From Podarcis gaigeae (Eukaryota): DNA of 64,000 bases. Each line of letters opens with the position of its first letter. Positions within the stretch are counted from its first letter, which is position 1. The position numbers were made by a program, and so were the translations under genes. The stretch is taken from assembly GCA_964106915.2 (NCBI GenBank), contig OZ066914.1; one strand, written 5' to 3'. The notes beneath the pieces are model-generated. The model was not told the origin of the DNA. It did not search any database and saw only the letters and a list, made by a program, of their open reading frames with translations. Below, piece by piece: positions 27,101-61,661 of the stretch.

Positions 27101-30100
27101 AACAGAGACCTAGGTGCCCTGTTCAAGCAGGACTTGTAAAAACATTGCAGCCTAGAAAATTGGATCACACACTCCACTTGTGCAGTAAGGTGTACCATGT
27201 CAGTTTCACTTTGTGATTTTTGGAAGGTTTCCCATGTCACAGAATGATGCAAAGCACCAGTAATATCACTCTTAGCAACGGATTTCTGCTTTAATCTTCC
27301 TGTGCTGGAGGAATTTCCTGTAGAATAGCAGGATCAGCATCATTTTATTTTTATGTTAAATATTACTTGAGTTAAGTTAAGGCTGTTTTGTTCCAGATAA
27401 CTGCTGGCAAAGAGTAGAGTTGCTGTGGGGTTACATAAGACAAAATAGTAGGCCAGCCATGGTGAGCTGAGGGTTATTTTCTTCCTACTTTTGTTAAACG
27501 ACCTGGTGAGCAGAACTACTATCCAACTTGGTTTATGTAAGATCAACTGACAAGCCACCTATCCAAGACACATCTAATGTTGACCCTCATAACTGACACA
27601 GTCATCCTGATTAGATCCTAGGCGGAGTCTGTTGTGATCCTTATGAATCGTATTGGAGCTGTATCATTAACTAAGAATGCAGCTTCCTCCCTGTTTGAAG
27701 GACCAAGAAGAGCAGTTCTGAACATGATGAACATTTTTCATATGCAGAATACAGCCAAATTCATAGAGAGACTGTACTGAGAAATTCACTGAGGATTCAA
27801 GATTAATAACTTGCTGTTGCAGTGGACTGAGATTTCTGTGTGATCTTTCAGGCCCATAAGACTGCTACACAAGGTGAAGCAATTGTTAAGTGAGCAGCAC
27901 AATGCCCCTGCCAGAGCTAACAAAGTCAAAGGCTGCATTAGCTTCCTTGTTGGTGCATTAGGAGGTACAAAACGGCGTGGTGTAAACAGTTGCGTTCCTG
28001 CTGCCCCAGTACATGATGCCTGGATTCAGCACTCTGTCAAGCAACAGTACTGAAATAACAGGCAAGCACAGTAGCCCATGTATTTGGAGCTGCCGTAAAC
28101 AAACATTACAGCCAGGCTTCTGTGTTAACAATAGTAGCTTTTCACACTCCTGAAATGGGCCCAAGATTTTTCATGTGGGCAGTGGCTGCTGCAATGCCTG
28201 AGTACCGACCAGAATCTCTGCTGCCTGAGGAAGATGGTGATTGGCTCCCTATGTTAGGGCTGATTGCCTGGAATCTGGGTCACAGACTTAACAAGATTGC
28301 TTTCCGCCGCTCCACTGCTCTATTCACCAGCCTGTCAGCTCTGTGTATGTGGCCCAGGGGAAAGGCCTGAGTTAGCCCCAAGCGCTGTAGCTTGTACAGA
28401 CTGTGTGCAGCTGACTGCACATTATAAATAACAGCATAGCACGTCAGCTACACTAGATAGTCATATCTGATGAGCTTTGAATTCTAGCTTCAAATCTCTA
28501 ATGCAAAAGAGCTTATTCACACATCTTCTCTACAACTGGGCTCAAACAAAGGTCACATTTTAAGGAGCTTCCTGAGTGGCTTTGTAAAGCCAGGGTTTCT
28601 TTTTTCTCTCACATAATATAGTTTATTGAAATTTGGAAGAAAATACAAAGATTGATGTCAGGTATCTTTTTATCAAGACTAAAAAACTATCCTAAATAAA
28701 AACACAAAACAGAAAGAAAAAGAGAAAAACAAGATGAAGAAAAAAGAAGAAGAAAAAGGGGGGTGAGAAAATGAGAACTTCTGATTCTTCATCTGTCAGC
28801 TATATGTAGAAAATTATTCAACACATCCAAACCAAGATAAACACCCAACAAATCTGCTTTCAAGAAACCAAAGCCAAGGTTTCTTCATACTGTGTACCAA
28901 GGCAATCCAACTTCTACATCAAGAAAATTCCAATCCTGTGCCCATACTCAGTTATTCGAGTAAATGTGTGGTTTATGTAGCACAGGCTTCCTCAAGCTCA
29001 GTCCTCCAGATGTTTTGAGACTACAATTCCCATAATCCCTGACCACTGGTTCTGCTAGCTAGGGATCAAGGGAGCTGTAGGCCAAAAACATCTGGAGGGC
29101 CAAGGTTGAGGAAGCCTGATGTAGCATATACCTGCTCAGTTTTGATTACATCTGAATTAGTTCAGGAAGTTTGTTCAAAGTGCTGGCCTCTTTGATGAGT
29201 GTGGGGTGTACAGCAGAGGAAAAGCCAAATGCATGTATAGAAGTGTGATTTGAGGTGACATTGGAATGAGGACACAGGTACTTTTGCACCCTGGAACTTT
29301 ATGTGATCCCTGTCTCTTTCCAAAGTGTATATTTAAACACAAGAATAAGAGAAACGCTTGTGGAAATAATACAAAAAGCTACCTGAGATTCTCACATATC
29401 AAATTTGGTACCAACAACCCTGCCCAGAGCACCCTCCCCACCTGTTTTTTGAGTTTGCTCAGACTTTGGAGATTGCTTACTGGCAAAATATGTTACTATT
29501 CAAACCTGTTGGCCAGAGCTATGAGAAAGTTCCTCAGCAGAGGTGGACTGTGATCTGTTTCAGAACTCCCCCTTCCCTTGTTGCAATTTTGTCAGTTGGC
29601 ATATGTCTTGGGACATCAAACAACGCAGATCTTCTGTAGTTGTGTGTGCACAGCTACATAGAACATGATAGCTCTGTGGTTAGAGCATGGTGCTGATAAT
29701 ACCAAGGTTGCAGGTTTGTGTTATCAGCGCCCTGCTCTAACCAAGTGAGCTATCATCCTCTAAGTGCTGAAGGCCAGTGTCAGGGAACTGCCATCGGACG
29801 AGCAGGTGGTGGAAGGGCTCAAGGAGGTTAGGAGAGACTTAACAGCAGAGGAGGGAACCAGCAGGGGGAGAAAAGGAGCTCCGAGGGAAAGGGAGTCGGA
29901 GGGATGGCTCTGGGACACTTCTAGCGAAAACAGTGAGGAGGTTTCAGGACCTCCTATAGGGACACCCACACCTCGCCGGAAACTGTCACGCCGAGAGTCC
30001 AGAAGACGCGTTTCCGTTAAGGAGCTTTTATGTTGGAAGAGATTCCGCAAACGCCCACTGTCGGATTCTGCCAGCGATTGAGGGAGCCATGCTTAAGGGG

Positions 30101-33100
30101 CTCCGCTACAGACAGAGCTTTGCTAATCTGGGCAAACTCTGAGGGACTAAGCTTTTACGCACAAGCAGCTCATCATCCCATCACAGCCAGGCTGCTGAAG
30201 GAAGTAACCTCTAGCATTTAAACTGTCACACTTCACTTACTGCTTAGCTGAATTATATTTTTCTTCTTTCTCCTACAGTGCAGCCATTGGAGGAACCTAG
30301 AGGAGACAGGTAGGTTTGCTCTGTATTGTCTTCATAGCGGAGATGGTTCTTGCCACCCTTCTGCCTTGCCTGCTTTCTTTTACTCAGTATTTTGACCTGT
30401 GTTATGACCTGAAAAGTGCTTCCCCAAATGGGTTGTAGGGCTCCTTACTCATTTCCCTTCCTTAATGGGGTCAGGTTTGGTTCTGGTTTCAGTTTCTAGA
30501 AATTGGAAGTGTCGGATGGATGGATGCCTTCTTCTCAGGATTTAATGGCATTTCAAGGCCAAGAGGAGGCGCTCAATTGTAGTCGTCACCTACTGGATGG
30601 ATGTCTGTCCTGAAAATGCCACCTGAGGCTTAGGAGGCATGGGGTTCCAAGAAAGGAATGTAGGAAGGAATTAACAGTTGTGCTGTGGTAGTCATTTCAT
30701 CAGCACAAGCTTTTCAGTTTCTCAGACAGAACAATCCCCCATCTCCCCCAGCCCCTGGTCTGGGAGGGCCTCCTAATCTTCCCTGTGCTAATTTCCCTGT
30801 GGGGAGGGAGTCCTATTCCACAGGCAGAGGTTCTTGTGCAAGTCCCTATTAGCAGGACTAGTTAGTTGAATCATGCCCCTTTTGGGTGGGCTTCACCTAA
30901 CCAGCCCCATTGGTGAAAGCCCTGCTCAAGAACTCTGCTTGTGGCTTTCCCTCCTCTCTTTCCCCCACCCCACAAATTGGTTCTGGGGAAGTTGGAGGAA
31001 CCAATGAGGGGGAGAGGCAAGCTGAATTACTTGCACATATGGAACAACTGAAAGAGGTCAACATTTGGCCATAACTTTGTTCCACAACAACTTTGATAGC
31101 TTTCTGTTAATACTGCCTGCAGGAAGTGATTCTCTGTTGCTTGTGGCAAGCGTACCTGGAAGGTCTAAAGTACTGATACATTGTTTCCATCCCTGTAGTG
31201 ACAGTGAGATGGCAAGAGCACAGCCTCACCTGTTAAGTGTCCCAGAGCTCTGTCGTTTCCTGGCAGAGAGCTGGATTACCTTCAGATTGTACCTTCAGGA
31301 GCTGCTGCAATACAAGAGGCAAAACCCTGCTAAGGTAAGCTGGGAGTCATCAGGCCCTCTCAGGAAAAATCCTAGAACATGGCTACTTTCCCCCATGGTG
31401 CCTTTGGGCCGTGGCTTGTTAACACATACATACATACATACATACATACATATTCAGATACATATATTCAAATACAAATACATACTCACAGTTGCTCCTA
31501 GCACTTAGGGCTGCTTCACACTGGATTATTTTTCTACATGGATATTGCTTCAGTTTAAGAAAGGATGTGCATACACAACAGCATGTGGTGTAAACGTATT
31601 CCAAACAGCAATTTTAAGGGAATAAAGTATTCTTCACAATATATGTGGAAACAAAAAATGGGAGTAGGGTTTTAATCAAGTATGCCAGTACAGACAAGGT
31701 ACAGTGTGTTCCAGAAACTATCCTGAGAAAAACAGCTGAGGGCAGACATACCCTTAGCCTGCACATACGTGTTGATGTTGCTTTGTAGATGTCATTTCTT
31801 TGTTTCTTTTTCCTCCGCTGTCACCCAGTTCTGTTTAGTAATCCAAAATGCATAATGTGATATATTTGTGTTGCAACTTTGTTCTTGACATTTGTCTTTC
31901 ATTGCAGAGGGGCATTTCTATGTGATGGCCTCATTCCTGCATTGAAATGTGAGATTGTTGCTTGCAGCAGTTGCTCCATATAAGCAGTAAATGAGCAGTT
32001 CTGGCCCTGAGCAGAATTCAGATTTTCTTGCTGTGGTGTCTGGGATTTATGAGCATAGATGGCAAGCAGCTCTCTCTATTGATTAATTAATGGCCTGTCC
32101 TTGGAGGAGAAAGCATTACCTTATATTATATAGTCAAGATCAGTTAAAGGGAAGGCAGGTAGAGAGGGAAGTAATGTATGGGCCTTATTTTATCTCAGGA
32201 TGAGGGAAGTCCTGAAATCTGTTCCAGTCACCTTTTGCCAGTGGGAAATTTCTTCCATTTCCATTGACAGCCTTAATAGTGAATCAAACACATACTCCTT
32301 TCAGAGGGTTGGGATTGGCATAGAAAAAGTCAGGCTTTTTCCTCTTGTAGTCAGCTATTTGCCCATTTGTCAGTTACTTTCAGACATGCAGCTTGCTGTT
32401 GCAGGTACTTCTGGATCCCCACCCGGCTCTGTTATAACACTACTTGGCAGCAGCACCCGGGAGAAAAAGAGTAGCCCATCGTTCTGGCATGGCAGATGCA
32501 CAAAGCATGCAAAATGGCTGTGTGGTGAATACAAGCAGTTATTAATTAAAACAAGGTTCTCTGGGATTGGAGGCATCTCTTGAGCCATTGCAAAGGTGGC
32601 TTATTCTGTGCTAAACCTTTCTTCTCTATCTTCTTTTGCCTTGTACTTCCAGTTTTGTGCCAGAGTCTGCTCAGGATGCTTGATCTTAGCGATAGTAGGA
32701 CACTATGTTCCTGGAATCATGATTTCCTACATTGTCTGTGAGTATAACTGGACTGTTTTATCCCTTAAAACTAGACATGTGACTTAACTAAGCATATGCC
32801 CAGGAATTTTCTTTATCCAGCTCATTTAAAAGAAATTAAAAGCACATAATAGTTCCGACACCTTGTGGGGAACAGGGACACAGATTGAATTTAATGAGGC
32901 GCAGCTGGTGGAGGGCTGGACACTGAGTAGTCTTGGGAAAATTGGCTGCTTCTTTGTCTCTGAGAATATATGCTTCTAACACTTTCTGGACTGTCTCCAG
33001 TGCTCAGTATCTTGCTGTGGCCGCTGGTGGTGTACCATGAACTTATCCAGAGGATGTACACACGCTTGGAGCCCATTCTGATGAAACTGGACTATAGCAT

Positions 33101-36100
33101 GAAGGTGGATACCTTGCATCTTAAACACGAAAAGAAAAGTAAGACAACAGCTCCACAGTACCTGAAATGCATAGCTTTTGATGATAGGATGCAGGGTGTA
33201 AGTCCCAGCAAGTAAAAATTAGAAACTGGGCTGGCTAGCTAGGAGCATTCAGTCCAGTGGGGTGAGGTCCAAAATCACTGGAGATGGCTGGATTTTAATT
33301 TGCATTAGTGTCCGGTACACTGATACCTTGGGTTACAGACCCTTCAGGTTACAGACTCCGCTAACCCAGAAATAGTACCTTGGGTTAAGAACTTTGCTTC
33401 AGGATGAGAACAGAAATTGTGCGGTGGCGGCGCGGCAGCAGCAGGAGGCCCCATTAGCTAAAGTGGTATTGTGGGTTAAGAACAGTTTCAGATTAAGAAC
33501 AGACCTCCAGAATGAATTAAGTTCTTAACCCGAGGTACCACCGTACTGTGAGGAAGCACGGTCTGTATGAAGCTTCTGATAAAATATTCCCCTGGTCTTC
33601 TTATAGGACTAGTTTGACTGATGTCCCATTAAGCATTTTATATATGTTTTCTAACAGAGCGTCAAGGAAAGAGTGAGCCCGAAGCTGGCAATGAGCCGAT
33701 GGCAGAGACTGAAAGTGAGAGTGAGGCGGAGCTGTCTGGGTATTCTCCAGTGGTAAGAGCATGGGAAGGGATGCATGTTGGTGTTGAGCATCATTCCTAA
33801 TAATTCATTTCTTTCAAGTGATGTGAGTTTGCCTGCAGGGTTGGAAGGTCTGAGATCTTGTACTTGTTCCCTTCATAAAGGCTACTGTATTCAAGCTGAC
33901 TTAGGAACTTGTAGAACTTGCAGGTCTGCTCTTTTTTGTCATTGTTACCACCTATGTGCTTGCTGGGCAAAGAGCCAGTGAACAAGCAGGTATTGGCATC
34001 TGTTGCCCCTCCTCACTTTCCCAGTGGTCTTGACCACAGCAAAAGGCAGGTGAACAAGGAGATTGCAATGATGAAGAGGCGGAGAAGGTCCAGTGGTGTC
34101 TCGTCAGTGGTCCCACTCCTGAAGTGTGGCCCCTTAGTAGATCCATCCTGACCCTTGATGCCTGTCCTGGAAATTTGGCATGATACTTCAGATTCAGGGG
34201 GACAGAGAGGAGTGGTGAGGTTCGCATTGTTGGGGGCATCTCTCTCCAAATGCTCCCTCCAACTTCTGACTCTCCAACCTTTCTTTTCAGAGCCAAAATC
34301 ACTCTATCTCTCAGGGTTTAGGTGGAAGAGTTAGACTTGGAGGATAGCTCTTCCTCATTATTGCCAGCACTAATTAGATATATAACCAACCTGGTATGTT
34401 GGATCTGGGTTCAAATTCCTGTTTGGTCAGAGTGGGTCAAGTGGGTTAAATGTTTAAGACACAACAGCATGTCCAATTTTAAATCCGGAAAATAAGATGG
34501 CAGAATCCCAAGTCACTGATTCCTCTACAGTTAATCTTACAACTAATTTTTGTAATTGGAACAGCCTTCCTTTTGATAATCCATGCATTGTTTCCATTCA
34601 GTAAAAGGTTAATATTTTTAGTGCATCCCTCTTTGAAATCCAAGTTAATATTGGCTCAGACTCTGATGGCAGAGATTCTAGGCTAACAGGTGGGACCTAG
34701 TGGCTCCACTGTAAGGTGGAGATTTTTAGCCACAAGAACAAAAAATGTCCTCACGCTCCTCCTTTTTGCAGGTGGATGTGAAGAAGACAGCTCTGGCATT
34801 GTCAATTACAGACTCTGAGCTCTCCGATGAGGAGGCCTCTATCCTGGAGAGTGGAGGCTTCACCGTCTCCAGAGCTACCACACCACAGCTGACTGACGTG
34901 TCTGAAGGTGCCATTTTCTTACTCCCCAAACCCAAATGCTGCATATTATTTGGGGCCACTGTGTGGTAGAGTACAAGTTGTGTGTTCCCTTCTAGAGTGT
35001 TCAGAGATGAAAACTAGGATATGAAGGGTACAGTGGTGCCCCGCAAGACGAACGCCTCGCAAGACGAAAAACCCGCTAGACGAAAGGGTTTTTCTGTTTT
35101 GGAGGCGCTTCGCAAAACGAATTTCCCTATGGGGTTGCTTCACAAGACGAAAAAATCTTGCGTCCCCCAGCGGTTTTTTTTTGGTTTTTTTGCCCTTTTC
35201 CTAAGCCGCTAAGCCGCTTATCAGCTGTTCCGCTGATAAGCCGCTTAACAGCTGATCGCTGGAAGCCGCTTGACAGCTCTAGCACTAATCCGCTAAGCTG
35301 TCAATGGGCTTGCTTCGCAAGACGAAAAAACCGCTAGACGAAGAGAATCGCGGAACGGATTAATTTCGTCTAGCGAGGCACCACTGTATTTGTAGTTGAA
35401 TTCATGAGAATGATGAACTTTGGGCTGAAAAGGACCAAAATCAAATCTGATTCCTGATTTCCAGACTTGGAGTGGCCCCTGAATACAGCTGTCTTCACCA
35501 GGAAACATGGATGTACTTGTTTACTATATTTTTACATGTTACAGTGCAAAGTCCAGTGTCTTTATTATTTCTTGATTCATGATAGACATCCCGGACTGTT
35601 CTGTAACTTGCGGGCCATTGGGAGAATGCGAGTAGCTCCCTTACTATGGTTACTGGTGCCACACACAAACAGCCCCAAGTTCTTCTGCAGCATTGTGAAG
35701 TCTTCAGGGATTAGCTGTCCACTCTAGGCTCTCCTTGCCTGAGCTTTGATCCCCCTATACTCTTTTCCCCCACCTAAGATGAACAGCTGACATTATCAAG
35801 GCAACATATTTCACTGAGGATTGCAGTCCTTGAGGCTGTAAGCCAAAAAGACTCACTTCTTCGACCAATCCATTTCCTTGTCACCCTAGCCTTGCCTTAC
35901 ATCAGGAGTGGTCAACCTTTTAAGACCAAGGACAGCATTTCCTCTCTGCCAGTGATTGGTGGACTGAGCAGAAAATTTAAATTTTGCCTCTGTATAGTAG
36001 GCTACTTTCTAAGCACACTTGCACACCCATTTCTCTCCTCCATTCAGGCCAGCAAGAGGCAGTATCAGAATTCAGTGACACATCCCAGCCAGGCAAAAAC

Positions 36101-39100
36101 ACTCAAGGAAGGGTACAAACCAGGCTGGTAAAAGGTGTGGCTTTGACAGAGAAGGGTGTGGTGAAGTGGGAAGTGTAGCCTTACCAAATCCTGAGGGCCA
36201 GATGGAGAGGCTTAGAAGGCTGCATCTGGCCTCCAAACCTGAGCTTCCTTTCCCCTGAGCATAACTTTTATTCATTTGCAAGCCTCCTACCCCCACACCA
36301 CACACAGCAGTGTAAATTGCAAACGAGAAAGGACGGTATTTTAATGCAGAAACTAGCACACTTGTACTATATAGATGTTGTAGTAGCTAGTGGTAATGTG
36401 GTATCATTACTGCTAAATCTCTGTGTATGTGAAAATCCAAAGTATTGGATCTTGTTCCATAATAGCTCATTTACACACTTAGAAGTAGCAGTTGCAGCCA
36501 ATTCCACTGCAGTAGCATGCAGAGCTTTTCCTGAGGCTTTACCAATGAGGAAGAACCTGGTGGAGTAACTTCAGGGAGCCCCAGCCTGCAATGCTAAGTA
36601 TGATTGTGTTTGTTTGTATAGTGCCTTAGAGTGCTTTGAAGCACATCAGCTTTGTTATCATGTTATCCTAGCTGCCTTGTATGATAGGTCAGGGTTGTTG
36701 CCATGGTACATGTTAGCACCAATGACGTGGGGAAATGTCATGTAACGCTGGAAACACAATTTAGGTAGCTAAGTTGGAGCTTGAGAGCCAGGACCTTCAC
36801 AGTAGATTTATTTTAAATGCTACCTTTTCTTTGTACAAGGCCAGCTAGACAGGCAGGGTTGAGTAGTTCAATGTATGGGTGAGTTGGTGGAGAGGTTTGG
36901 ATTTGTTAAGCACTGAGAAATGTTCTGGGACAAGCCAGGCCTGTACAGAAGGGGCAGGCTCCATTTCAGCTGGGACGGAACCAGACTGTATATGCTTAAA
37001 AGGTGGCAGAGCAGCTATTCAGCTGTTTGCTGGGAGAATGCCACTTGAAGCTGAGGATCATCTTATTTGGGGCAAACCATCCAGGGGAATCCAGGAAATT
37101 TCAGGGTGGTTAGTTTAATGTCTCTTCTGGGAAAACTGGTGGCAAGCATAATTAAAGATTGGAATACCAAGCATATAGAAGGACAAGCTTTGCTGAGTCA
37201 GAATCAGTGTGGCTTCTGCAAGGGTAAGTCCTGTGTTTTAGAATGTCAGCAAGCACATAGAGAGAGAGAAAGAAGTGATCCAATTGACATAGTGTACTTA
37301 AACTTTCAAAAAGCCATTGTCTATGGAGTCCCTTGCCCAAGACACCTGATTAAGTTTAGCAGCTGTGAAATAAGAGGGCATGCTGTTATAGATCAGGACT
37401 GGTTAAGAAACAGCAGAGAGTAGAAATTAATGAAGGGTTTTCCCAATGCAGTGGTGTCCAAACTTTTTTCAAAGAGGGCCAGATTTGATGTAGTGAAGGG
37501 CCATGAGGGCCAATCAAAGGGCCAACCAAAGTTTTAAAGCTTTTTTCAGGATTAAAGTTGTGGAGGTTTTTTTAGGACTTTACCCCAGGAAATAAACAGC
37601 CACAGGGGCCGGATTAAACCTACCAGCGGGGCCGAAGTAGGCCCCCAAAATGCACTTTGGGCATGCCTGCAATAGAGGGATGTAGAAAGTGAGGTCCACC
37701 AAGGTTTGATGTTGGCACCGGTGCTTTTTAAACTTGTTCATAAATTATCTACAGTTGGGAGTGAACAATAAGGTAGCCAAGTTTGCTGCTGATACTAAAT
37801 TGTTTGGGGTGGTTAAAACAGAAAGGAATTGTGATGGGCTTCAAAAGGAGAAGTAGACATTAAAATGGGAAATGCAATTAAATATAAGCAATGTAAGATT
37901 ATGCATGGTGTAGAGAAAGAGAGATGTTTCTCATAATACAAAAATCTGAGGACATGTAATGAAGCTGCATGTTGGAAGATTCAGAACAGACAAGAGGAGG
38001 TTCACATAGCACATACCATAGTTTAAACTATGGAATTAGTTCCAACAAGACATAGTAATGGCCATCAATGTGGATGGATGTAAAAGACAAATTTCTGGAT
38101 GATAAAGCTGTCAATGGCTGCTGGCCACAATGGCTTTGTTCACTGTCCACTAGTGTGTCTGAGTTCCAGTTGCTGGGAATTCCAAGTGGGAAGAGTGCTG
38201 TTTCGCTCATGTCCTGCTTGTGGATTTCTCATAGGCATATGAGAACGGGATGCAGGACTAAATGGGGCTTAGGTCTGATTCAGCAAGGCTGTTCTTACAT
38301 TTTTATTGCCCCCATATTGTAGTGCAGGGGGCAGGAGTGAGAATGAGATAGTGGTGGTATATCTAAAGCACCTAATGAGTACATGACAAAAGTGAGATTC
38401 AAACCAAGGAATTCCTGATTTGTACACACTCTTCATAGCCACTACGATACACAGCTTTCATACATCAGCATTAACGTGCATGATACTGCATACATTTACC
38501 AACTCAGATTTGTTCTGGTGAGATGATTGAACAAGAAAGAAAAGCAGTAGCAAGATCATAGTGGGGTTGGTGACTTTTAATCAGGGAGTACAGCTATAGA
38601 ACAGCAGCAACTGACCTGTTAATGAGAGAATAGGAAAGAACATTTCTGTGCAAGGTCAGGATAAGATGATAAGGAGGCACACAAAGGCAAGTACAGTAAG
38701 TGTATTCAGAAAACAGACTGGCAGCTGAGCTTGGAATGGCAACTGATGATTGAGAACAGGGAATTCTGGGGTGTTTGAGGAGGCCATGTTCATACTCCCA
38801 ATATGCTTTTCAGATCTGGACCAGCAGAGCCTTCCCAGTGAGCCAGAAGAGTCCTTCTCCAAGGACTTGGCAGAGTTTCCTTCTGTGGAAGAGTTTCATT
38901 CCAGAGACTTGGGACCACCCAGTGAGGATGACAAGTTTGCAGTGCCTGCCCACACTGCCCACCAACTGGACTCGGCTGAGAAAGACGGCGTGGCGGCAGC
39001 AGCCATGAGTTCAGACACATCCATCCTGTGCCTGGCCTCACCCCTGCACTTTGTAAATACGCACTTCAACGGGAACGGGCAGGCAGTGGCAGGAGGAGCC

Positions 39101-39493
39101 CTGGAGCCCCAACCTGTCACTGCTCAAGGCCTGGGGCTGCACATCGATTCACTGAGCCAAGAGATTGTCACCACTGCTATCAGTACAGTAGTGCAGAACA
39201 CCCTGTCAGCCCTGCTCCGCTCCTCTGAGGACAACGAGGGGCCTTCTCTCTCTGAGTTCCTGCCCACTGAGCCCGAGGAGAGACTGAGCTTCCAGGCCCA
39301 GCTGTCTGAGAGTGCGGAGGTGGGGGCGGCCTCTCTGCCTGGGGAGGAGGAGGAGGAGGAAGCTGATGATTTTGAGCTGCTTGATCAGAGGGAGCTGGAG
39401 CAGATGGATGCAGAGCTTGGCCTTTCTGGAGAGACAGAGGCTCAAGCGACACCGGCTCTCCCTCCTGAAGAAGAATCCTTGCCCAGCTCCTAG
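20641..39493 (+). CDS. RETREG2: Reticulophagy regulator 2 (FAM134A), ER-phagy receptor, complete, 556 aa
   Basis: Coding exons: 20641-20903, 26335-26441, 30279-30309, 31199-31334, 32653-32737, 33001-33138, 33658-33752, 34772-34907, 38814-39493 (stop). The total is 1671 nt, GT-AG with consistent phases. Reticulon-homology peptides [26 protein letters not shown] and QNPAKFCARVC are present, as are [19 protein letters not shown] and the LIR motif DDFELL at 39365-39382. Confidence 0.96.
24462..24823 (-). mobile_element. Sauria SINE, full length, CpG-rich (young)
   Basis: The minus strand reads GGGACGCGGGTGGCGCTGTGGGTAAAACC..GGTTCGAATCCC (tRNA-like head) through GGGTACCTTTACCTTT. Confidence 0.88.
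25657..25901. mobile_element. Tc1/mariner (Tigger-like) MITE
   Basis: TA TSDs at 25655-56 and 25902-03, TIRs CAGTGGTACCTC/GAGGTACCATTG. A highly similar copy lies at 33318-33543. Confidence 0.8.
25986..26121. mobile_element. Palindromic hAT MITE
   Basis: Perfect 8-bp TSD GCCTAGAT (25978-25985, 26122-26129) with long internal inverted symmetry. Confidence 0.85.
28598..28940 (-). mobile_element. Probable decayed L1/Tx1-like 3' fragment
   Basis: T-run with TTTATT at the left edge, followed by A-rich low-complexity sequence typical of a LINE 3'UTR in reverse orientation. Confidence 0.4.
28983..29118. mobile_element. Palindromic hAT MITE
   Basis: Perfect 8-bp TSD ATGTAGCA (28975-28982, 29119-29126) and TIR CAGGCTTCCTCAA/TTGAGGAAGCCTG. 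Confidence 0.85.
29665..29756. repeat. Inverted pair of tRNA-derived SINE heads forming a hairpin
   Basis: ATGATAGCTCTGTGGTTAGAGCATGGTGCTGATAATAC (29665-29702) and its near reverse complement at 29718-29756. Confidence 0.7.
29778..30185. mobile_element. Solo LTR (408 bp) of an LTR retrotransposon or ERV
   Basis: Starts TGTCAGGGA and ends TCCCATCACA (TG..CA with a short imperfect inverted repeat). It is flanked by a perfect 5-bp TSD GCCAG (29773-29777, 30186-30190). Confidence 0.75.
31423..31450. repeat. (CATA)n microsatellite
   Basis: Directly visible tetranucleotide tandem repeat. Confidence 0.8.
33318..33543. mobile_element. Tc1/mariner (Tigger-like) MITE
   Basis: TA flanks and a body very similar to 25657-25901. 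Confidence 0.8.
35031..35386. mobile_element. Young CpG-rich Tc1/mariner MITE
   Basis: TA TSDs at 35029-30 and 35387-88, TIRs CAGTGGTGCC/GGCACCACTG, and internal repeats of GCAAGACGAA and AAGCCGCT. Confidence 0.82.
37050..38306 (+). mobile_element. Decayed CR1 LINE (reverse transcriptase fragment to 3' end), interrupted by a hAT-like MITE at about 37449-37668
   Basis: Remnant peptides [30 protein letters not shown] and the AKFAADT (KFADD) motif. CR1 3' tail TGATTCAGCAAGGCTGTTCTTA. Confidence 0.8.
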
Positions 39494-41790
39494 GTCCCAC
39501 TGCTCCCCTGTATTTCTGCAGCTGCAAGGGAAGGACAAGTGAACACACAGCAGAGTTTGGTCTGTGCTGACTGGGGACGGCAAAACATCCACATTCACAG
39601 TGTTATGTCTGGAATAGTGAGTCCTCTTCCTAGTGTTGGCCTTCCCAGCAGGGTGTTGCGTCTTGCCCACGCTTCCTAGTGGTGATGCAATCTTTTTGGT
39701 CTGCTGCTGCAATTTGTCTGTCTTTGTCTATTCGTTTTGTTTTTTTGCACGCCGCATCCTCAGCTAGATATCCCCGCTGCTCGCACCCACTGTTCATGCC
39801 CCCCCAGTAGGAAGGAAAGCGGTTTTATTGGATGAAGGGGGGTGCCAGGGGGTCTTCATTGTAAATATTTTTATGAAAACATTGGTTTGTTTAGTTGGGA
39901 AGAGGGAGAAGGGATTGGTGGTATGGAGAAAACGGGTTGAGTTGGGTTTTTCCCCTTGAGTTAGAAATTTGGGGGTGGAGGGGAAGTAGGGCTTCAAAGG
40001 AGACATTGTGTGGAGTATATTTGCTGTCAGGACAAGATGAGGGGGCACAATTGAGCTTTGCTGCCCACTTTGTACAAGAATAGCAGCTGCTTTTGCACTT
40101 CTGAGCACTAGCCCTTTCCCTTACTTTCACCCTACAACCCAGTTTCCTTTATTCAGTTCTGTGAATATGACACCTGATTTGGGCTCCAGGAAGTGGGTAG
40201 TCTGGTCCTGTAGATTCTCAACTCCAAGGCCAGGCTGCCTGCAGGCTCTTTAATCCACTTGGGGGAAAACAAAGCAATTTGCAGTGACTTGAAAGCTTCC
40301 TCTTCCACTGCTGCACTTTAAAAGCAAAATCCCCTTATATCTACTTCTTGTCACCTTTCTCTAAGGCCTGTCTGAGCCAGCTCTGCCCTATGATGCACCC
40401 TGGCCAGAGCACAATCTTCTGCTGCCCTCAGCCTTGCCTTAGGGAAAAGAGCAGAGCAGCTTGAAAAGGAATGATGCGTGTGGGACATTGGGAAGAACAT
40501 TCTCCAACTCCAAGCTCTCTAGGCTTATCTCCACTCTACTCCCACTCTCAAATCACTTTTGAAACCTCAGGGGTTTCACCTTTATAGTCTTTTGCTAATT
40601 GGAGTAGTGTGCCCATTTATGTTCTCAGGAGAAAGGAGGGACTAAATAGGAGTGGAGGATTGTTTGGTTTTTTTCCTCCAAAGGTGGTTATTGCCCCTGA
40701 TACCTATTGCTGCTTGCACAGGTTTGCAGAATATTAATTCTAGCTGTCTTTCAAATATTGATTTTAAGTTGCAATGATAAAATGGGTTTTTAATTAAATG
40801 GAAACAAAGATGCCCCCTATTGGGTGTGTATCTTTGTTAAGAGGCATCAGTCTGTCTTCAGGAATAGCGTTCTTGGCTGAGTGGATACTGCTTGCTCCCA
40901 GTAATGGATCTCATTTTTTGCCTCTTTTCCAATGATTGCTGGAGAAGCTGGGTGGGTTGGGGAGTGTCATGAATTGGCCATTTTCTTGCTGTTGAAAATT
41001 TCCAAGCTGGGCACTTCCAGGCGATTCCTGACGCTTTCACATTCTCACAAGTGACTGCAGCTTTGCAGATGCAGGCCCTGAAGCTGCGATAGCTTGCCCT
41101 GCAGGCCTCAGCATTTTAAACTGCACTTCTGAGAGTTTATGACCAAGGTGAAGGTGCTGCCTCTCAGCAAGAGGGGCCACCAATCAATTCCAAGCACATT
41201 TGCAAGACCCCAGTTCTTGCCTTTTGCACCCTTCAAGTTTCATCACTTGCTGAGTCAGTCACTGGCCCACTCTTTGTATCGAGGATGGCTGCCTGTCTCA
41301 GGTTCCTTCAGTCATGGGGCAATGATTTTCTTGAAATGCAAAATGATCTTGTTCTCCAGAGTTTCTGACCTGTGTTGCCTGCCCCATCCCAGCCCAGCCC
41401 CAGTCAAATGTTGAGGGGAGGATGCCTGTTAATACAGCTTCCTCCTAATGTCTGCACTTTGGAAATGGGCAGCCACGTAGCACTGAGTGTGGAGCTTGCT
41501 CGCCTTTGTATTGTGTCCTGACCACAAATTTTGCTACCCCTACCACCAGCCAGAAGCCCTAGCTTTCCCATTCTGGTGCAGGAGGCATGTTATATGTTTG
41601 TGTTTTTCTCTGAAGCTCTAAGCTGTCTTCCTCTCCTTTGGTGGCAACAGCGCCATAATGCTCCATGATAGGGGCCTTCTGAGGAAGGGCTGGGAGGCTG
41701 CTGATGTCACCCAGGAAAGGCAGAGGGCTTTGAACTGTGTAGCGGTGTTTATTCTATGGCTAAATATTTAAAGCAAACTGTAGTCTTTTT

Positions 41791-56356: not shown

Positions 56357-59300
56357 TTAGCCCTTCCCTACAACTCACCTGCCGACCAGAATCCTTGAGT
56401 CGGGCATGGATGCGCTGCACAAAAGCAGGGTCTCCCAGAAGGCTCAGTGGGGCACTCAGCTGCACATGGGAAGGATCTGTGGCATCTATCAAGTGCTGCC
56501 ACTCCTCATCGCTATCCAACTCCTAAGAGGCAAGAGTGAGTCAGTGAGGACCACCACCATCAGAAAGCCAAGAAAGTACTTCCTTGCAACTATGCAAATC
56601 ACTGTGGAACCTGGCCATGCACTCACCTCAGTCTCCAGATCCACAGTGTCAATGCTGCGTCTGCCTCGTGCTTCTGCTCTGCCACTTTCTGGCCTCAGCT
56701 CTGGGAATTCCCGCTCGTAATCCTGTGTGATCCGATTTTCTCTGTCCATGAAGAAGAGGGATGAGAGGCTGAAGGCGGGCTACACAACAATGAAATGTTC
56801 TCACCCCAGCTTTGGTTTTCTCTTGTAAAGGACCCCTGGACAGTTAAGTCCAGTCAAAGGTGACTATGAAGTACAGCACTCATCTCGCTTTCAGGCTGAG
56901 GGAGCTGGTGTTTGTCCACAGACAGCTTTCCAGGTCATGTGGCCAGCATGACTAAATCACTTCTGGTGCAACGGGACACTGTGAAGAGTGCCAGAGAGAA
57001 CAGAAATGCCATTTACCTTCCTACCGCAGTGATACCTATTTATCTACTCACAATGGTATGCTTTTGAACTTCTAGGTTGGCAGAATCTGGGACATATATA
57101 TGTCAGCTAATTTAGTTGTTTCCAGTGTTGCCTTGGTCATTTGGTATTACTTAGAGCAACAGTATCTCTATCTGAAAGTCCTGCAAGCTGGAACTTACGT
57201 TTCTATGTATAACTTTGTCCAGAGCTGTTTTGCTGAGCCTATGACTTCTACAGCAGTAAAAGATCTGGACCTTACTCTGATTCTGTGTGGTGTCTGGTAC
57301 TGCCAGCTTTAGATCCACACTTCCCTTGCACGTGTATCATATACCACATTCTCAACAAAATAAACGCACTTCAATTCCTTCTTCTCACCGAGGTGTGGGG
57401 GAAGATTCCTTTTGCTCCCACTCCATTTCCTTTCCTCCAAGGCTAGGGTGCCTCTGTTCTCCAGTGCCAGGAGCTGCCCGATTCGCTTCTCTGGGATCTG
57501 TCTGAGCAAGGCAGGCTTTGCGTGTGTGGCTCTGGACCCCCTTGGGGGTTTCTTCCTTAAACAAAACCCTGGATTTCCCCATCTCCTGTAAGAAGTCAAG
57601 CAACACAGGATGATTCTAATGGACTGCACCCCACCATACCATAAGTTGCCTTGCCAGCAATGGTACTACCTGCCTCTCACCTTTCTCCGAGCTTCCTGGG
57701 CCATCTTCTGCCGTGCTTTCCTCAAGATCTTTGACTGGCCACTGTGAGGGGCCAGCGAGTGTGTCTGCTGCTCTTTCAGGGCCTGCAGTTCAGGAGGTAG
57801 TTTGCTGGTGAAAGGGTTGGTAATGCCTTGATCCGCTGTGTCATCAATCACTGCAAAAGAGAAGGTCCATGTCGGTGACTGGGCTTGCTTGAATTGGGCT
57901 CTGTAAGGAAAGGCAGATGCAGGAACCAGATGGGGGGAAATTGCAAGTAAGCATGGCAGCTGGTACTCACCAGTGACCCGCCCTGCAATGAAGGGGTGAT
58001 AGAGTAGCTCTGGCCAGGACAGGCGCTGCCGAGGGTCTTTCATCAACAGGCCTTGCAAGAAGCTCTACACAGTAATGAGAGATGGTCACTTGCACGTCCT
58101 CACACTACTTATAGTCTATAACCCCAGCTGCTAATTTTACAAGGAAAACCTTGGAGTCAATGAAATTCCTTGGTCGCTGTGGGAAGAGTCTATTCAATCC
58201 ATGCATACAAAAAGCACATTTTCCAGAATGTTCCCATTTTTTTCATTTTTAAGTTTCTAGCTCTGAAGAAAAAAGTCTTGCAAACATGGCTGCATATTCT
58301 GCCTTAAGAAAGAACCTGGTGGCCCCAATACCACCTAAACATGTTTGCACACAGAACTACATTCTTTGGTACAATGTAGCAATGTGGTATCCTTCAGACA
58401 TTGTAGACAACATTACCCTAACCACTGGCCAAGCTGGCTGTGGCTGATGCAGTCAAAATCATTGGGGGGGGGGGCATCCCTGCCTTAGCAAGTACACTCT
58501 TATCCCAGTCTAATCCCCACAGGCAGTGGGGTAGGATAAGGATTGGAGAATGCACTTAAAATCTGTATTTCTACCTTTCAGACATACACACCAACAGTGT
58601 GAAAGAGGCCAAGTGGCATGAGTGAACAAAATCTAAGGCGTTCAAGCTTCCAAGGAGAGAACAAACTCAAACCACAGATACATACAGTGTAATGCCAGAG
58701 ATACAGATAGCTGAATTTGAGTCATGGGAAACCCAAAAGTATAAGCTTCTAGAGCAAAATATATCTCTTATGGCCCTTAGCAGGGCCAATCTACCTTACA
58801 AGGCTCTTGTGTGTGGATAAAATGAGACTAAAGAAGCAATGCATCTAAACCTGCCCTGAGATCATTGGATGGAGTGGGGAAGGCATTTAAGTACAGTTAC
58901 CTTGAAACAAAAAAAATTCCTTCCAGTAGCACCTTAAAGACCAACTAAGTCAGTTCTTGGTATGAGCTTTCGTGTGCATGCACACTTCTTCAGATCATGC
59001 ACACGAAAGCTCATACCAAGAACTGACTTAGTTGGTCTTTAAGGTGCTACTGGAAGGAATTTTTTTTGTTTTGACTATGGCAGACCAACACGGCTACCTA
59101 TCTGTAACAGTTACCTTGAAGTTGGGGCTCATGTTTTTTGGCCACTTGATGGGGTCCTTGATGATCAAGCTCACCAACTGGAAGATGCTGTTGGTGTAGA
59201 AGGGTGGTGTCCCTACACACAGCTCATACAGAATGCATCCCACTGACCAGAGGTCAGCTGTGTGGTCGTAGGGTTTCTCTTCCACTAGCTCAGGCGCCAT

Positions 59301-61661
59301 ATACAGTGGAGTGCCTTTTATAGATGTCAGCACCATGGTGTGAATACTCATTGCGCGGGCAAACCTTTCCAGGAAAGAAAGAAGACAACTGAGACCTTTC
59401 AGTAATGAGACCAGAGATTGGTTGGGGAGATCAGTTCTTAACGTACCTACCCAAAGTCACAGAGCTTGATCACTCCTCCTTTCCCAAGAAGGATGTTTTG
59501 GGGTTTCATGTCACGGTGCAAGATTCGGTGGGAGTGCAGATAATAGAGCGCTGAGACCAATTGAGAGGCAATATCTTGCACCTGAAAGAAAATGACAACC
59601 CTGATACTTTGCAAAGCCCATTTAATCCTGTAGGGATGCTCCACATCTCCAGCATAAAACTTCCATTCCTTTTTGTTATCTTTGCCGATGCCCCTCAATT
59701 GTGAATCATAAGTCCTTCCCCAACACACAGAAATCTACTTGTATTATCCTAAGACAATTAGATCTATTTTTATCCTTGCGGGCAGCAGAGAGCAAGCATT
59801 TCCACTCTTCTATGTACCCTTCAGGTATTTGAAGACTGCAATCATGTCCATCTGCTGCTAGACTTCTCTTCTCCCGATTCAAAGCTAGTTCAAAACACAT
59901 CTGTTCACTCAGGCATCACTTGAAGTGTGACTCCAGATATTCTTATTTATTTAGGATAAGGGCTGTAACTCAGTGGTAGAGCTTTGCATACGGAAGGTCC
60001 CAGGTTCAATCCTCAGCATCTCTAGATAGGGCTGGCAATGTCCCTTGTCTAAAACACTGGAGAGTCACTGCCAGTCAAAGCAGACATAACTGAGCTAGAT
60101 GGACTAATGGTTTGACTCAAGGCAGCTTCCTATCTTCTTATTACTAATCATGGTGAGTTTGTAATGTTTTATGGTTTATTGTGTTTTTATATTGTACCAT
60201 ACACCACTTTTGATATTCCAGTTTGAGAAATATATAAACTGGTTAAAAAAATTAATAAACAAAAAAAGTAGGAAGTAGGAAAAAGTAAGGAAGTACCAAC
60301 TTCCTTAAACCTTTCCTTGATTTAATCTGTTCTAATATCATCCTTGGTATCAAATTCAGAGGGATGGGTCTCTAGTTTCTCAGATCATCTTTTTAAAGAT
60401 TGGGACTGTCTTGTAAGCACCTCAGTCACTATTCCAGGAGATGTAACAGGTTCATGTCAAAGTACACAGCTGGAGGGTTTATGGCCTAGCAAAGACTGAC
60501 ACCTACCCAGACTCCAGCTACTCTCCCATTCCTGGAGTCATTCATCACACTGAATCCCCACTTACTCTTCTGGTCATAGTTACCTGCTCCTCAGGCAAGT
60601 TCCCATCATCCTCAAGGATCTGAAAAAGCTCCCCTTCAGCATAATCTGTCACTACTACAACCTAAAGGAGATAAACAAGACCAGAATGCCAATGAGAACA
60701 TTTTCAAAGGTGGGACACTTGTGGGTAGGGAATGACAGTATGACTAAGCTCTCTGTACTGTTTGAAGCCAACAGGAAACCACCATCAAAAGAAGAGTGTG
60801 CAGCAGCTACCAACACATTTTTATTTGATGAAGGTCCCTATGGAGAGCTCCAAACTCTAAGTGTGTTGGGACATTCTTTGGATAATGTCATTCTGCTGAT
60901 AGGTCTTGGCAGGCTAATTACCTGATGCAGCCTCATGAACCAATAGGCTTGATGTGGCAATCCACACTTCTACAGACAAGATGTGTAATTTAGATAGCTG
61001 TTACCAAAATGGCTAAATTTTAGTTCACTCCTCCTAGGTACTCATTGGAACATCTGGAGAACACCATATAACCTAAACTTCATCAAACAAAATGTAGCCG
61101 TTTTCAGGCCTTTCTGCTTCTTGGGGGACTTTTCACAGAGCCAGGAAGACACCATTTTCTTCTTCACCTCCCACACTTAAAAAGGACTCCCAGCAAGTCC
61201 TTTACCTCTTTATCAGTCTCAAAACTGTCAAGCATCTGGACAATGTTGGGATGATGAAGCCCCCTCATGATCTCAATCTCTCGCTGCAAATTCTTCAGCT
61301 CTTTCTGTGAGCGACCCACTTTAGGGATAAACTTCAAGGCCACCACCTGCCAAAAAATTATTATTATTTTAAAAGGCTGGAAATGTGTCATACACTACTT
61401 TCCCCTCTGTCTGTCCCTGAAAAACTCATTGTGAAACAATGACCACTGCAGGCTCAGGAGCAGACTTCTTATATAGCAATCTTTGGAAACAAATCTCCCT
61501 AAATTAACTCTCTTGCCTGTTGATGAGGTCCATCCCCGTTCCCTTGTGCACTCTGCCCTGTTCCCTTGTGCTCTTACCTGTGCACTGTATTTGCGACGCC
61601 CCTTGTACACTCTTCCAAAAGAGCCTTCGCCAATCATCTCCAATACATGATACTTCTCCAT
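43959..61661 (-). CDS. STK36: Serine/threonine-protein kinase 36 (Fused homolog), complete, 1324 aa
   Basis: 26 coding exons: 61661-61578, 61346-61206, 60661-60584, 59581-59451, 59364-59115, 58064-57971, 57850-57681, 57585-57389, 56741-56627, 56522-56379, 55489-55310, 54490-54393, 54070-53965, 53460-53319, 52660-52533, 52422-52318, 52144-52049, 51579-51485, 50714-50651, 50161-50051, 49913-49839, 48608-48437, 48234-48087, 46835-46676, 46217-45474, 44105-43959 (stop). The total is 3975 nt with consistent phases. Kinase motifs are intact ([39 protein letters not shown]), and C-terminal HEAT/ARM repeats are present ([21 protein letters not shown]). Confidence 0.97.
44442..44634 (+). mobile_element. 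CR1 LINE 3' end
   Basis: GGATGGCCACTTGTC..CTAGATGACC..TTCTATGATTCT tail. Confidence 0.75.
47155..47506 (+). mobile_element. Sauria SINE, full length
   Basis: GGGACACGGGTGGTGCTGTGG head, GGTTCGAATCCC B box, Sauria body and an imperfect TSD TGTTA(C/T)ACCAA. Confidence 0.85.
49305..49793. mobile_element. Two older hAT-type palindromic MITEs (about 49305-49443 and 49669-49793)
   Basis: CCAACCTGGTGCCCTCCAGATGTT / AACATCTGGAGG..CCAGGTTGG inverted structure with degenerate 8-bp TSDs. Confidence 0.6.
53041..53250 (-). mobile_element. CR1 LINE 3' end, adjacent to an L2-like 3' remnant at about 52740-53040
   Basis: GAGTTGGAAGGGACCCCAAGGTTCATCTAGTCCAACCCCCTGC is the reverse complement of a CR1 tail. 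Confidence 0.72.
55753..56113 (+). mobile_element. Sauria SINE, full length
   Basis: Perfect 12-bp TSD TATACCCTGTCA (55741-55752, 56114-56125), tRNA-like head and GGGTACCTTTACC tail. Confidence 0.9.
56322..56356. repeat. (TG)n microsatellite
   Basis: Directly visible dinucleotide repeat next to an STK36 donor site. Confidence 0.85.
56826..57090 (-). mobile_element. Older Sauria SINE fragment
   Basis: TAAAGGACCCCTGGACAGTTAAGTCCAGTC..GGTCATGTGGCCAGCATGAC..TTTACCTTCC..CCTATTTATCTACT. Confidence 0.7.
58907..59106. mobile_element. Recent Penelope-like element remnant (inverted pseudo-LTR fragments) with a 14-bp TSD
   Basis: TSD ACAGTTACCTTGAA at 58893-58906 and 59107-59120. Perfect 76-bp inverted repeat at 58905-58980 / 58996-59071. 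Contains GGTCTTTAAGGTGCTACTGGA, CAGACCAACACGGCTACC and a CTGAAGA..GAAAGCTC hammerhead core, which I recognise as typical of reptile Penelope termini. Confidence 0.78.
58958..58995 (-). ncRNA. Minimal hammerhead ribozyme motif (stem I truncated, probably inactive)
   Basis: Minus strand AU-CUGAAGA-A-GUGUG-CAUG-CACAC-GAAA-GCUC-AUACC gives a CUGANGA box, a perfect stem II and a GAAA box. Only 2 bp of stem I remain. Confidence 0.55.
59960..60138 (+). mobile_element. tRNA-derived SINE with CR1-like tail
   Basis: GGGCTGTAACTCAGTGGTAGAGC (A box), GGTTCAATCC (B box) and tail GAGCTAGATGGACTAATGG..GGCAGCTTCCTAT. Confidence 0.7.

Follow-up and report, generated by a model that had tools for sequence, protein, structure and literature searches.

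How is an exon spliced after a retroelement has landed on its splice donor and duplicated it? The question is raised by a 64,000-nucleotide stretch of contig OZ066914.1 from the lizard Podarcis gaigeae, which we call the window. An earlier note on this DNA proposed that an insertion into the STK36 gene had created a potential recursive splice site, by a route that was suggested for intron gain. The locus carries a recent and polymorphic stub of a Penelope-like retroelement (PLE). We think it probable, though well short of certain, that splicing mainly uses the original donor, that some leakage to the copied donor would be removed by nonsense-mediated decay (NMD), and that the copied AG is inert.

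The STK36 locus with and without the insert

The exon at 59364-59115 belongs to STK36, as the earlier note had it: the two best of its 1,503 matches are 100% identical and are named Podarcis serine/threonine-protein kinase 36. The ESM Atlas gave no more than "protein kinase". By tblastn with one of the two Podarcis proteins, the gene extends from 61661 to about 43962, this is its fifth coding exon, and the junction after residue 228 leads to the exon that starts at 58064. We examined 120 proteins, and in 107 of the 109 homologues that could be parsed, S/N/D-FLQG continues past this junction, which corresponds to the exon at 58064.

An exact 14-nt direct repeat is found at 58893-58906 and 59107-59120 (a spacing of 214 nt). 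Its minus-strand sequence is TTCAAG/GTAACTGT in both copies, with the slash at the exon end and GT at 59114 and 58900, so the donor is present twice at the distance described before. The right-hand repeat begins with AC (plus strand), and these two letters also come next in the element, so that 2 nt of the 14 bp are microhomology. The two donors are identical from -6 to +8. In the exon 5 donor, as in several other donors of STK36, the +5 position is C, and the acceptor at the upstream end of the same exon is also AAG. A third donor-like site in the insert (TAG/GTAGCC at 59097, in the part that we call the tail) is weaker and would cost more to open (6.4 kcal/mol). The features on the gene's side are:

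59115-59364, minus strand: fifth coding exon of STK36, 250 nt, kinase domain, residues about 146-228
59107-59120: duplication copy with the original donor AAG/GTAACT (GT at 59114-59113); its two insert-side letters are also element sequence
59094-59096, minus strand: in-frame TAG, which translation would reach after splicing from the copied donor; it precedes the new junction by 193 nt
58893-58906: second duplication copy, with AAG at 58903-58901 and the duplicate donor GT at 58900-58899
57971-58064, minus strand: next STK36 exon (SFLQG...), with acceptor TAG at 58067-58065

If the downstream donor is used, translation reads through as ...NFK VTVTDR to the TAG at 59096-59094, in agreement with the KVTVTDR stop that had been reported. 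This stop is six codons into the insert, at about residue 234 of 1,324, and would truncate the kinase. By the established rule for NMD, applied to a stop 193 nt before a junction, the transcript would be an expected NMD substrate and probably decays.

Elsewhere in the window (about 29760-39500, plus strand), a second gene has exons that run towards the 3' end of STK36. Their translated pieces resemble RETREG2/FAM134A, a candidate identity for this gene.

The insert is missing from three of the four sequencing runs that we compared. In the contigs of X3, a different sample that carries the same species label, 58892 is followed directly by 59107, and the same join is seen in two other organisms (X4 and X6). 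This empty allele has one 14-mer and no insert, and it is exactly 214 nt shorter. In the remaining run (X1, possibly the sample from which the assembly was made), flanking contigs reach 22-23 nt into the insert from both sides, with no break at the duplication. Judging from the contig breaks among the matches listed, X1 probably lacks the empty allele and looks homozygous. The insertion at STK36 is thus recent and polymorphic, as the earlier note had suspected, and the alignment of orthologous loci that it suggested does give the junction with a single 14-mer in three other samples.

We consider an assembly artefact to be extremely improbable. Palindromes are generally hard to assemble, which is all that can be said for this explanation; against it, the X1 contigs contain both junctions and their flanks show no differences, the empty allele differs by precisely the length of the insert plus one repeat copy, and thousands of sister copies share the insert's structure. 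Within the same intron, the window also differs from all three of X3, X4, and X6 by a small indel at 58786, and from the two other organisms, X4 and X6, by small indels at 58267 and 58312.

The insert and its element family

The insert is 200 nt long and is dominated by an inverted repeat, whose two 76-nt arms (58905-58980 and 58996-59071) are 100% complementary and are separated by a 15-nt loop. The folding of this hairpin is beyond chance (z = -23). The parts of the insert are:

59072-59106, plus strand: PLE "tail", on one side only, 35 nt; in the full element L051 (below) these are the first codons of the ORF
58996-59071, plus strand: sense-oriented, 5'-truncated piece of the pseudo-LTR; the 5' arm of the 76-bp stem in STK36 pre-mRNA
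58981-58995, minus strand: 15-nt loop, with the 5' end of the inverted copy and the joint of the two copies
58905-58980, minus strand: inverted, tail-less piece of the pseudo-LTR; the 3' arm of the stem, which holds the branch zone and the U-tract
58964-58993, minus strand: minimal hammerhead core (CUGAAGA, stem II, GAAA, CUC), read against the contexts in L033-L053
58905-58916, minus strand: U-tract, the proposed polypyrimidine tract, predicted to be paired (mean probability of being unpaired 0.025)

The genome contains many relatives of this insert. All 40 of the scored candidates (out of 291) are near-identical hairpin copies, and 23 of 30 hairpin copies that we fetched have a duplication of 12-15 nt, so the 14 nt at STK36 are of a usual length for the family. 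The 28 nt at the insert's right end, in the tail, have 7,411 exact copies in the genome (the control had 0). Taking 30 tail copies in genome order, we found an inverted arm within 1.4 kb in 17, and 12 of these 17 have a 12-14 nt duplication. We fetched 20 loci that match GIY-YIG, and 18 of them also contain the insert's sequence. The locus L051 holds a full element: a repeat with the tail, a 921-codon stop-to-stop frame, and a repeat without the tail. The domains above cut-off in this frame are RVT_1 (45.5 bits) and then a C-terminal GIY-YIG (26.5 bits), with CX4CXXC between them at residue 781, and both arms of the insert are 98-100% identical to the repeats that flank the ORF. On this similarity we identify the insert as a hairpin stub of a PLE; the earlier note's call of a retroelement insertion holds, with L051 as the partner that encodes reverse transcriptase (RT) and GIY-YIG. 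Two other candidates, the 3' end of a LINE (CR1/L2) and a miRNA precursor, were dropped after this partner was found.

PLEs typically have inverted 5'-truncated copies, a one-sided tail of 30-40 nt, and hammerhead motifs, and a cysteine motif in the linker is described in Neptune and Nematis and as absent from Penelope/Poseidon (PMC8557442). If placed by its linker motif alone, the L051-type element would belong to the Neptune or Nematis clade. The uninterrupted 921-codon frame of L051 is at 5768-3003 (minus strand), its first ten or so codons form the tail, and the repeats around it are 98.8% identical. Given the intact frame and the similarity of the repeats, the family is young and probably still active. 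The hammerhead core can also be read in the pseudo-LTR of full copies, where helix I has 4 bp, as compared to 2 bp in the insert, whose motif is mostly inside the stem. Rfam gave no match to a hammerhead family in the insert, only below-threshold matches of the miRNA type, which we discount because any long hairpin yields such matches. Thousands of perfect intronic hairpins like 58905-59071 would make long double-stranded RNA, which would be a likely substrate for ADAR or small-RNA pathways, and editing could loosen this stem.

The ends of the copies suggest how the hairpin was made. As the reference for the pseudo-LTR we used 6065-5690 on the minus strand of L051 (G000:C17:77538500-77546500). 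Of 60 copies, 51 have the end of the tail arm at reference positions 360-365; an inverted arm is present in 44, and 35 of these arms end at 321-333. In an anole, a PLE nicks and extends both strands, and reverse transcription starts internally, at one site on either side of the tail (PMC11167929); our two clusters of 3' ends match what would be expected from two internal starts and nicking of two strands. We propose that the element's endonuclease would make two nicks about 12-14 nt apart; that RT would extend from both nicked strands, at two sites in the element's RNA that are ~37 nt apart (the end and the start of the tail); and that the two short copies would be joined head to head. Staggered nicks, two priming sites, and head-to-head joining would together explain the hairpin, the one-sided tail, and the duplication.

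We also note that the 5' ends of the short copies (L055-L114), as taken roughly from blastn alignments, form a cluster 1-6 nt ahead of the hammerhead core, with 15 of 60 tail arms and 18 of 44 inverted arms. This cluster coincides with an initiator-like TCAGT whose A is 30 nt past a TATATA in the pseudo-LTR, which suggests that, in many stubs, the 5' end is not a random truncation but the start of a short transcript, made from a promoter of the element and copied in full. Also, the target letters TCTGTGAG... lie beside the tail at many unrelated places (L087, L092, L114, and ten or more others), which suggests that the element either prefers this site or has often inserted into the copies of another repeat family.

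Splicing of the allele with two donors

In the STK36 pre-mRNA, the stem would close as its 3' arm is made and would hide the sites for U2AF and U2, while both U1 sites would be left just outside the stem, the original one in its exonic context. The U1 sites are predicted to be about equally accessible (3.1 and 4.0 kcal/mol to open). Also, the filled allele appears to be tolerated. We lean, with modest confidence, towards mainly normal splicing of exon 5 from this model.

The main competitor is the copied, intron-proximal donor. If it mostly wins, the exon would grow from 250 to 464 nt, and the allele would be a strong hypomorph of a motile-cilia kinase; in both humans and mice, loss of STK36 leads to disease of the cilia (PMC6952885; PMC10295485). 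We consider this outcome unlikely, but use of the downstream donor is a live possibility that the earlier note underrated, as it is favored by experiments with duplicated donors. When strong donors were duplicated at least 45 nt apart, almost only the downstream site was used, in HeLa cells and in vitro (PMC3413131). With the stem folded, the two donors here would be separated by about 47 single-stranded nucleotides (43 + 4, from the coordinates), the contexts of the donors are identical from -6 to +8, both are outside the stem at similar predicted cost, and the duplicate inherits the native downstream context of the intron. However, the rule was described for sites with high complementarity to U1 (PMC3413131), and these donors have C at +5. 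The model in the same paper assumes that SR proteins coat the spacer, which a double-stranded spacer would not allow. And near-complete loss of the normal transcript would be hard to square with a carrier, X1, that apparently lacks the empty allele. The stem or the hammerhead could also disturb processing in other ways, by skipping of the exon (250 nt, so a frameshift), by intron retention, or by self-cleavage of the pre-mRNA. A 76-bp stem begins 43 nt past the donor and the gene strand carries an intact hammerhead core, so these outcomes deserve mention, but we think them very unlikely, as the original U1 site is outside the stem. Self-cleavage of STK36 pre-mRNA in particular seems unlikely from the sequence: helix I is only 2 bp and most of the core is within the stem, single minimal hammerheads were inactive in vitro (PMC4209133), and the anole hammerhead required the element's protein (PMC11167929).

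In two-step splicing, as the earlier note envisaged, the insert would be removed as a 214-nt intron (59115>58900), perhaps with the stem bridging its ends, and AAG/GUAACU would be regenerated and used again. The layout that suggested this is present, with a U-tract, an AG, and a full donor in order, but the UUCAAG before the second GT belongs to the duplication and not to the insert. Recursive sites are known across a broad range of intron sizes (PMC10156609), structures that span an intron can replace U2AF2 in fish introns (PMC4691745), and AAG is usable in STK36, as it is the exon's own upstream acceptor. We nevertheless consider this reading improbable, and we predict that the copied AG does not work as an acceptor. 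The U-tract and the whole -40..-18 zone are predicted to be paired, with probabilities of being unpaired of 0.025 and 0.001. The predicted cost of opening is 13.3 kcal/mol for the U-tract, 16.5 kcal/mol for the U-tract with the AG, and 53.9 kcal/mol for the branch zone (-40..-18); for -16..+1 at two real acceptors it is 5.9 and 7.4 kcal/mol. Folding at 30 C gives the same picture; this is an equilibrium model, in which helicases, ADAR editing, and bound proteins have no part. With its 5' arm transcribed first, the stem could close before the AG is made. Since the stem also encloses the branch zone, splicing without U2AF2 opens only a small door.

The motifs argue in the same direction. The branch consensus is yUnAy, and its only matches (-50 and -63) fall within the stem; the unpaired tail has none. 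Other AGs, at -44, -32, and -19, precede the candidate AG. The site also departs from the definition of recursive sites as Y5+N0-4YAGGT (PMC10156609), as it is AAG/GT. These motif arguments are weak, since the real acceptor at 58064 has no yUnAy within its -40..-18 zone and the exon's own acceptor is AAG, which leaves the stem as the main argument. Furthermore, the layout is a routine by-product of this kind of insertion. We found a donor-like motif after the tail at 32 loci in the insert's orientation, and of the 30 that we examined, 21 have an inverted arm and 19 (including STK36) have a U-tract and a duplicated AG/GT; 9 have YAG, which is better than the AAG at STK36. The claim of a recursive site is thus not supported, given three features that the earlier note had not weighed: a stem that is predicted to bury both tract and branch zone, an AAG, and a layout that recurs at comparable copies; and even if it were right, the mRNA would stay unchanged.

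Other stubs in this set (L085-L114), such as L090, L091, L108, and L112, duplicate strong donor-like motifs with YAG behind the U-tract, such as CAG/GTAAG. The YAG stubs in L085-L114 had no Pfam match, and there may be exons among them that are untranslated or not in Pfam. It is conceivable, although we rate it as quite improbable, that PLE stubs are ready-made, structure-bridged introns, whose stem joins the donor to the duplicated AG, so that the stub is removed precisely and the donor is regenerated. If this were true, then an abundant family in lizards could land harmlessly on splice sites or on exonic AG/GT, and it could be a source of new recursive sites and introns in a vertebrate.

The proposed route to intron gain also does not fit this locus. 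Intron gain from a transposon requires an insertion that splits an exon (PMC3296678). No exon was split at STK36; the duplicated AG/GT is an old exon end, and the empty allele has its intron at the same position, so no intron was gained. Even successful two-step splicing would give the normal mRNA, with no new exon or intron position.

Chance expectation and comparison with known systems

A stub at a real donor need not be surprising. We expect about one to three such hits per genome by chance, and about 1.4 in this orientation (7,411 tails x 17/30 with a hairpin x ~5 registers x ~200,000 donors / (2 x 1.51 Gb), where about 200,000 is the number of donors per genome). The motif AGGTRA is next to the tail at 32 loci in the insert's orientation and at 56 in the other, and we do not take this difference as selection, because the element's AC and TCTGT favor the second pattern and most of these motifs are not real donors. 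We compared 36 of the 37 stop-free stretches that end at the donor-like motif, from 30 of the 32 loci, to Pfam, and only the STK36 locus had a match; this search had low power and left out one second frame of the STK36 locus, and it may have missed other real donors. The insertion in STK36 is an ordinary one, of a well-known kind, at an unlucky place, and is one of thousands of young PLE stubs.

The allele is of interest for another reason. A natural allele with a duplicated donor and the empty allele occur under the same species label, which could provide an in-vivo test of the intron-proximal rule across a double-stranded spacer. If the rule holds here, then a loss-of-function allele of a motile-cilia gene is segregating.

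Our literature search, which had scant coverage of subscription journals, found no paper on this STK36 locus or on a PLE that duplicates a donor. The closest known systems are PLEs with an endonuclease (EN+; PMC8557442; PMC11167929), which share with our insert the inverted truncated copy, the one-sided tail from the start of the ORF, and the hammerhead in the pseudo-LTR; their full copies have RT and then a C-terminal GIY-YIG, as L051 does. The STK36 insert differs from them in its landing site alone, which is an exon-intron boundary. As for the lizard copies in general, their duplications are consistently 12-15 nt, which the available portions of PMC8557442 and PMC11167929 do not discuss. 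With Neptune and Nematis, L051 has the CX2-5CXXC linker motif in common, which is not diagnostic of Neptune alone.

As to splicing, the engineered duplicated donors of PMC3413131 likewise set two identical donors in cis, at a distance above 45 nt, in competition for one acceptor, whereas ours is a natural allele with a sub-consensus +5 and a spacer that is mostly a perfect stem. Recursive sites, as described in PMC10156609, similarly have an acceptor-like AG fused to a full intronic donor; the STK36 site differs in having AAG instead of YAG, in the predicted pairing of its tract and branch zone, and in its lack of conservation, as it is absent from three other samples. Finally, intron gain and introners (PMC3296678; PMC9860276) also involve a transposon that is flanked by a duplication and supplies splice dinucleotides, but the target in STK36 was an existing exon end, and no new intron position arose.
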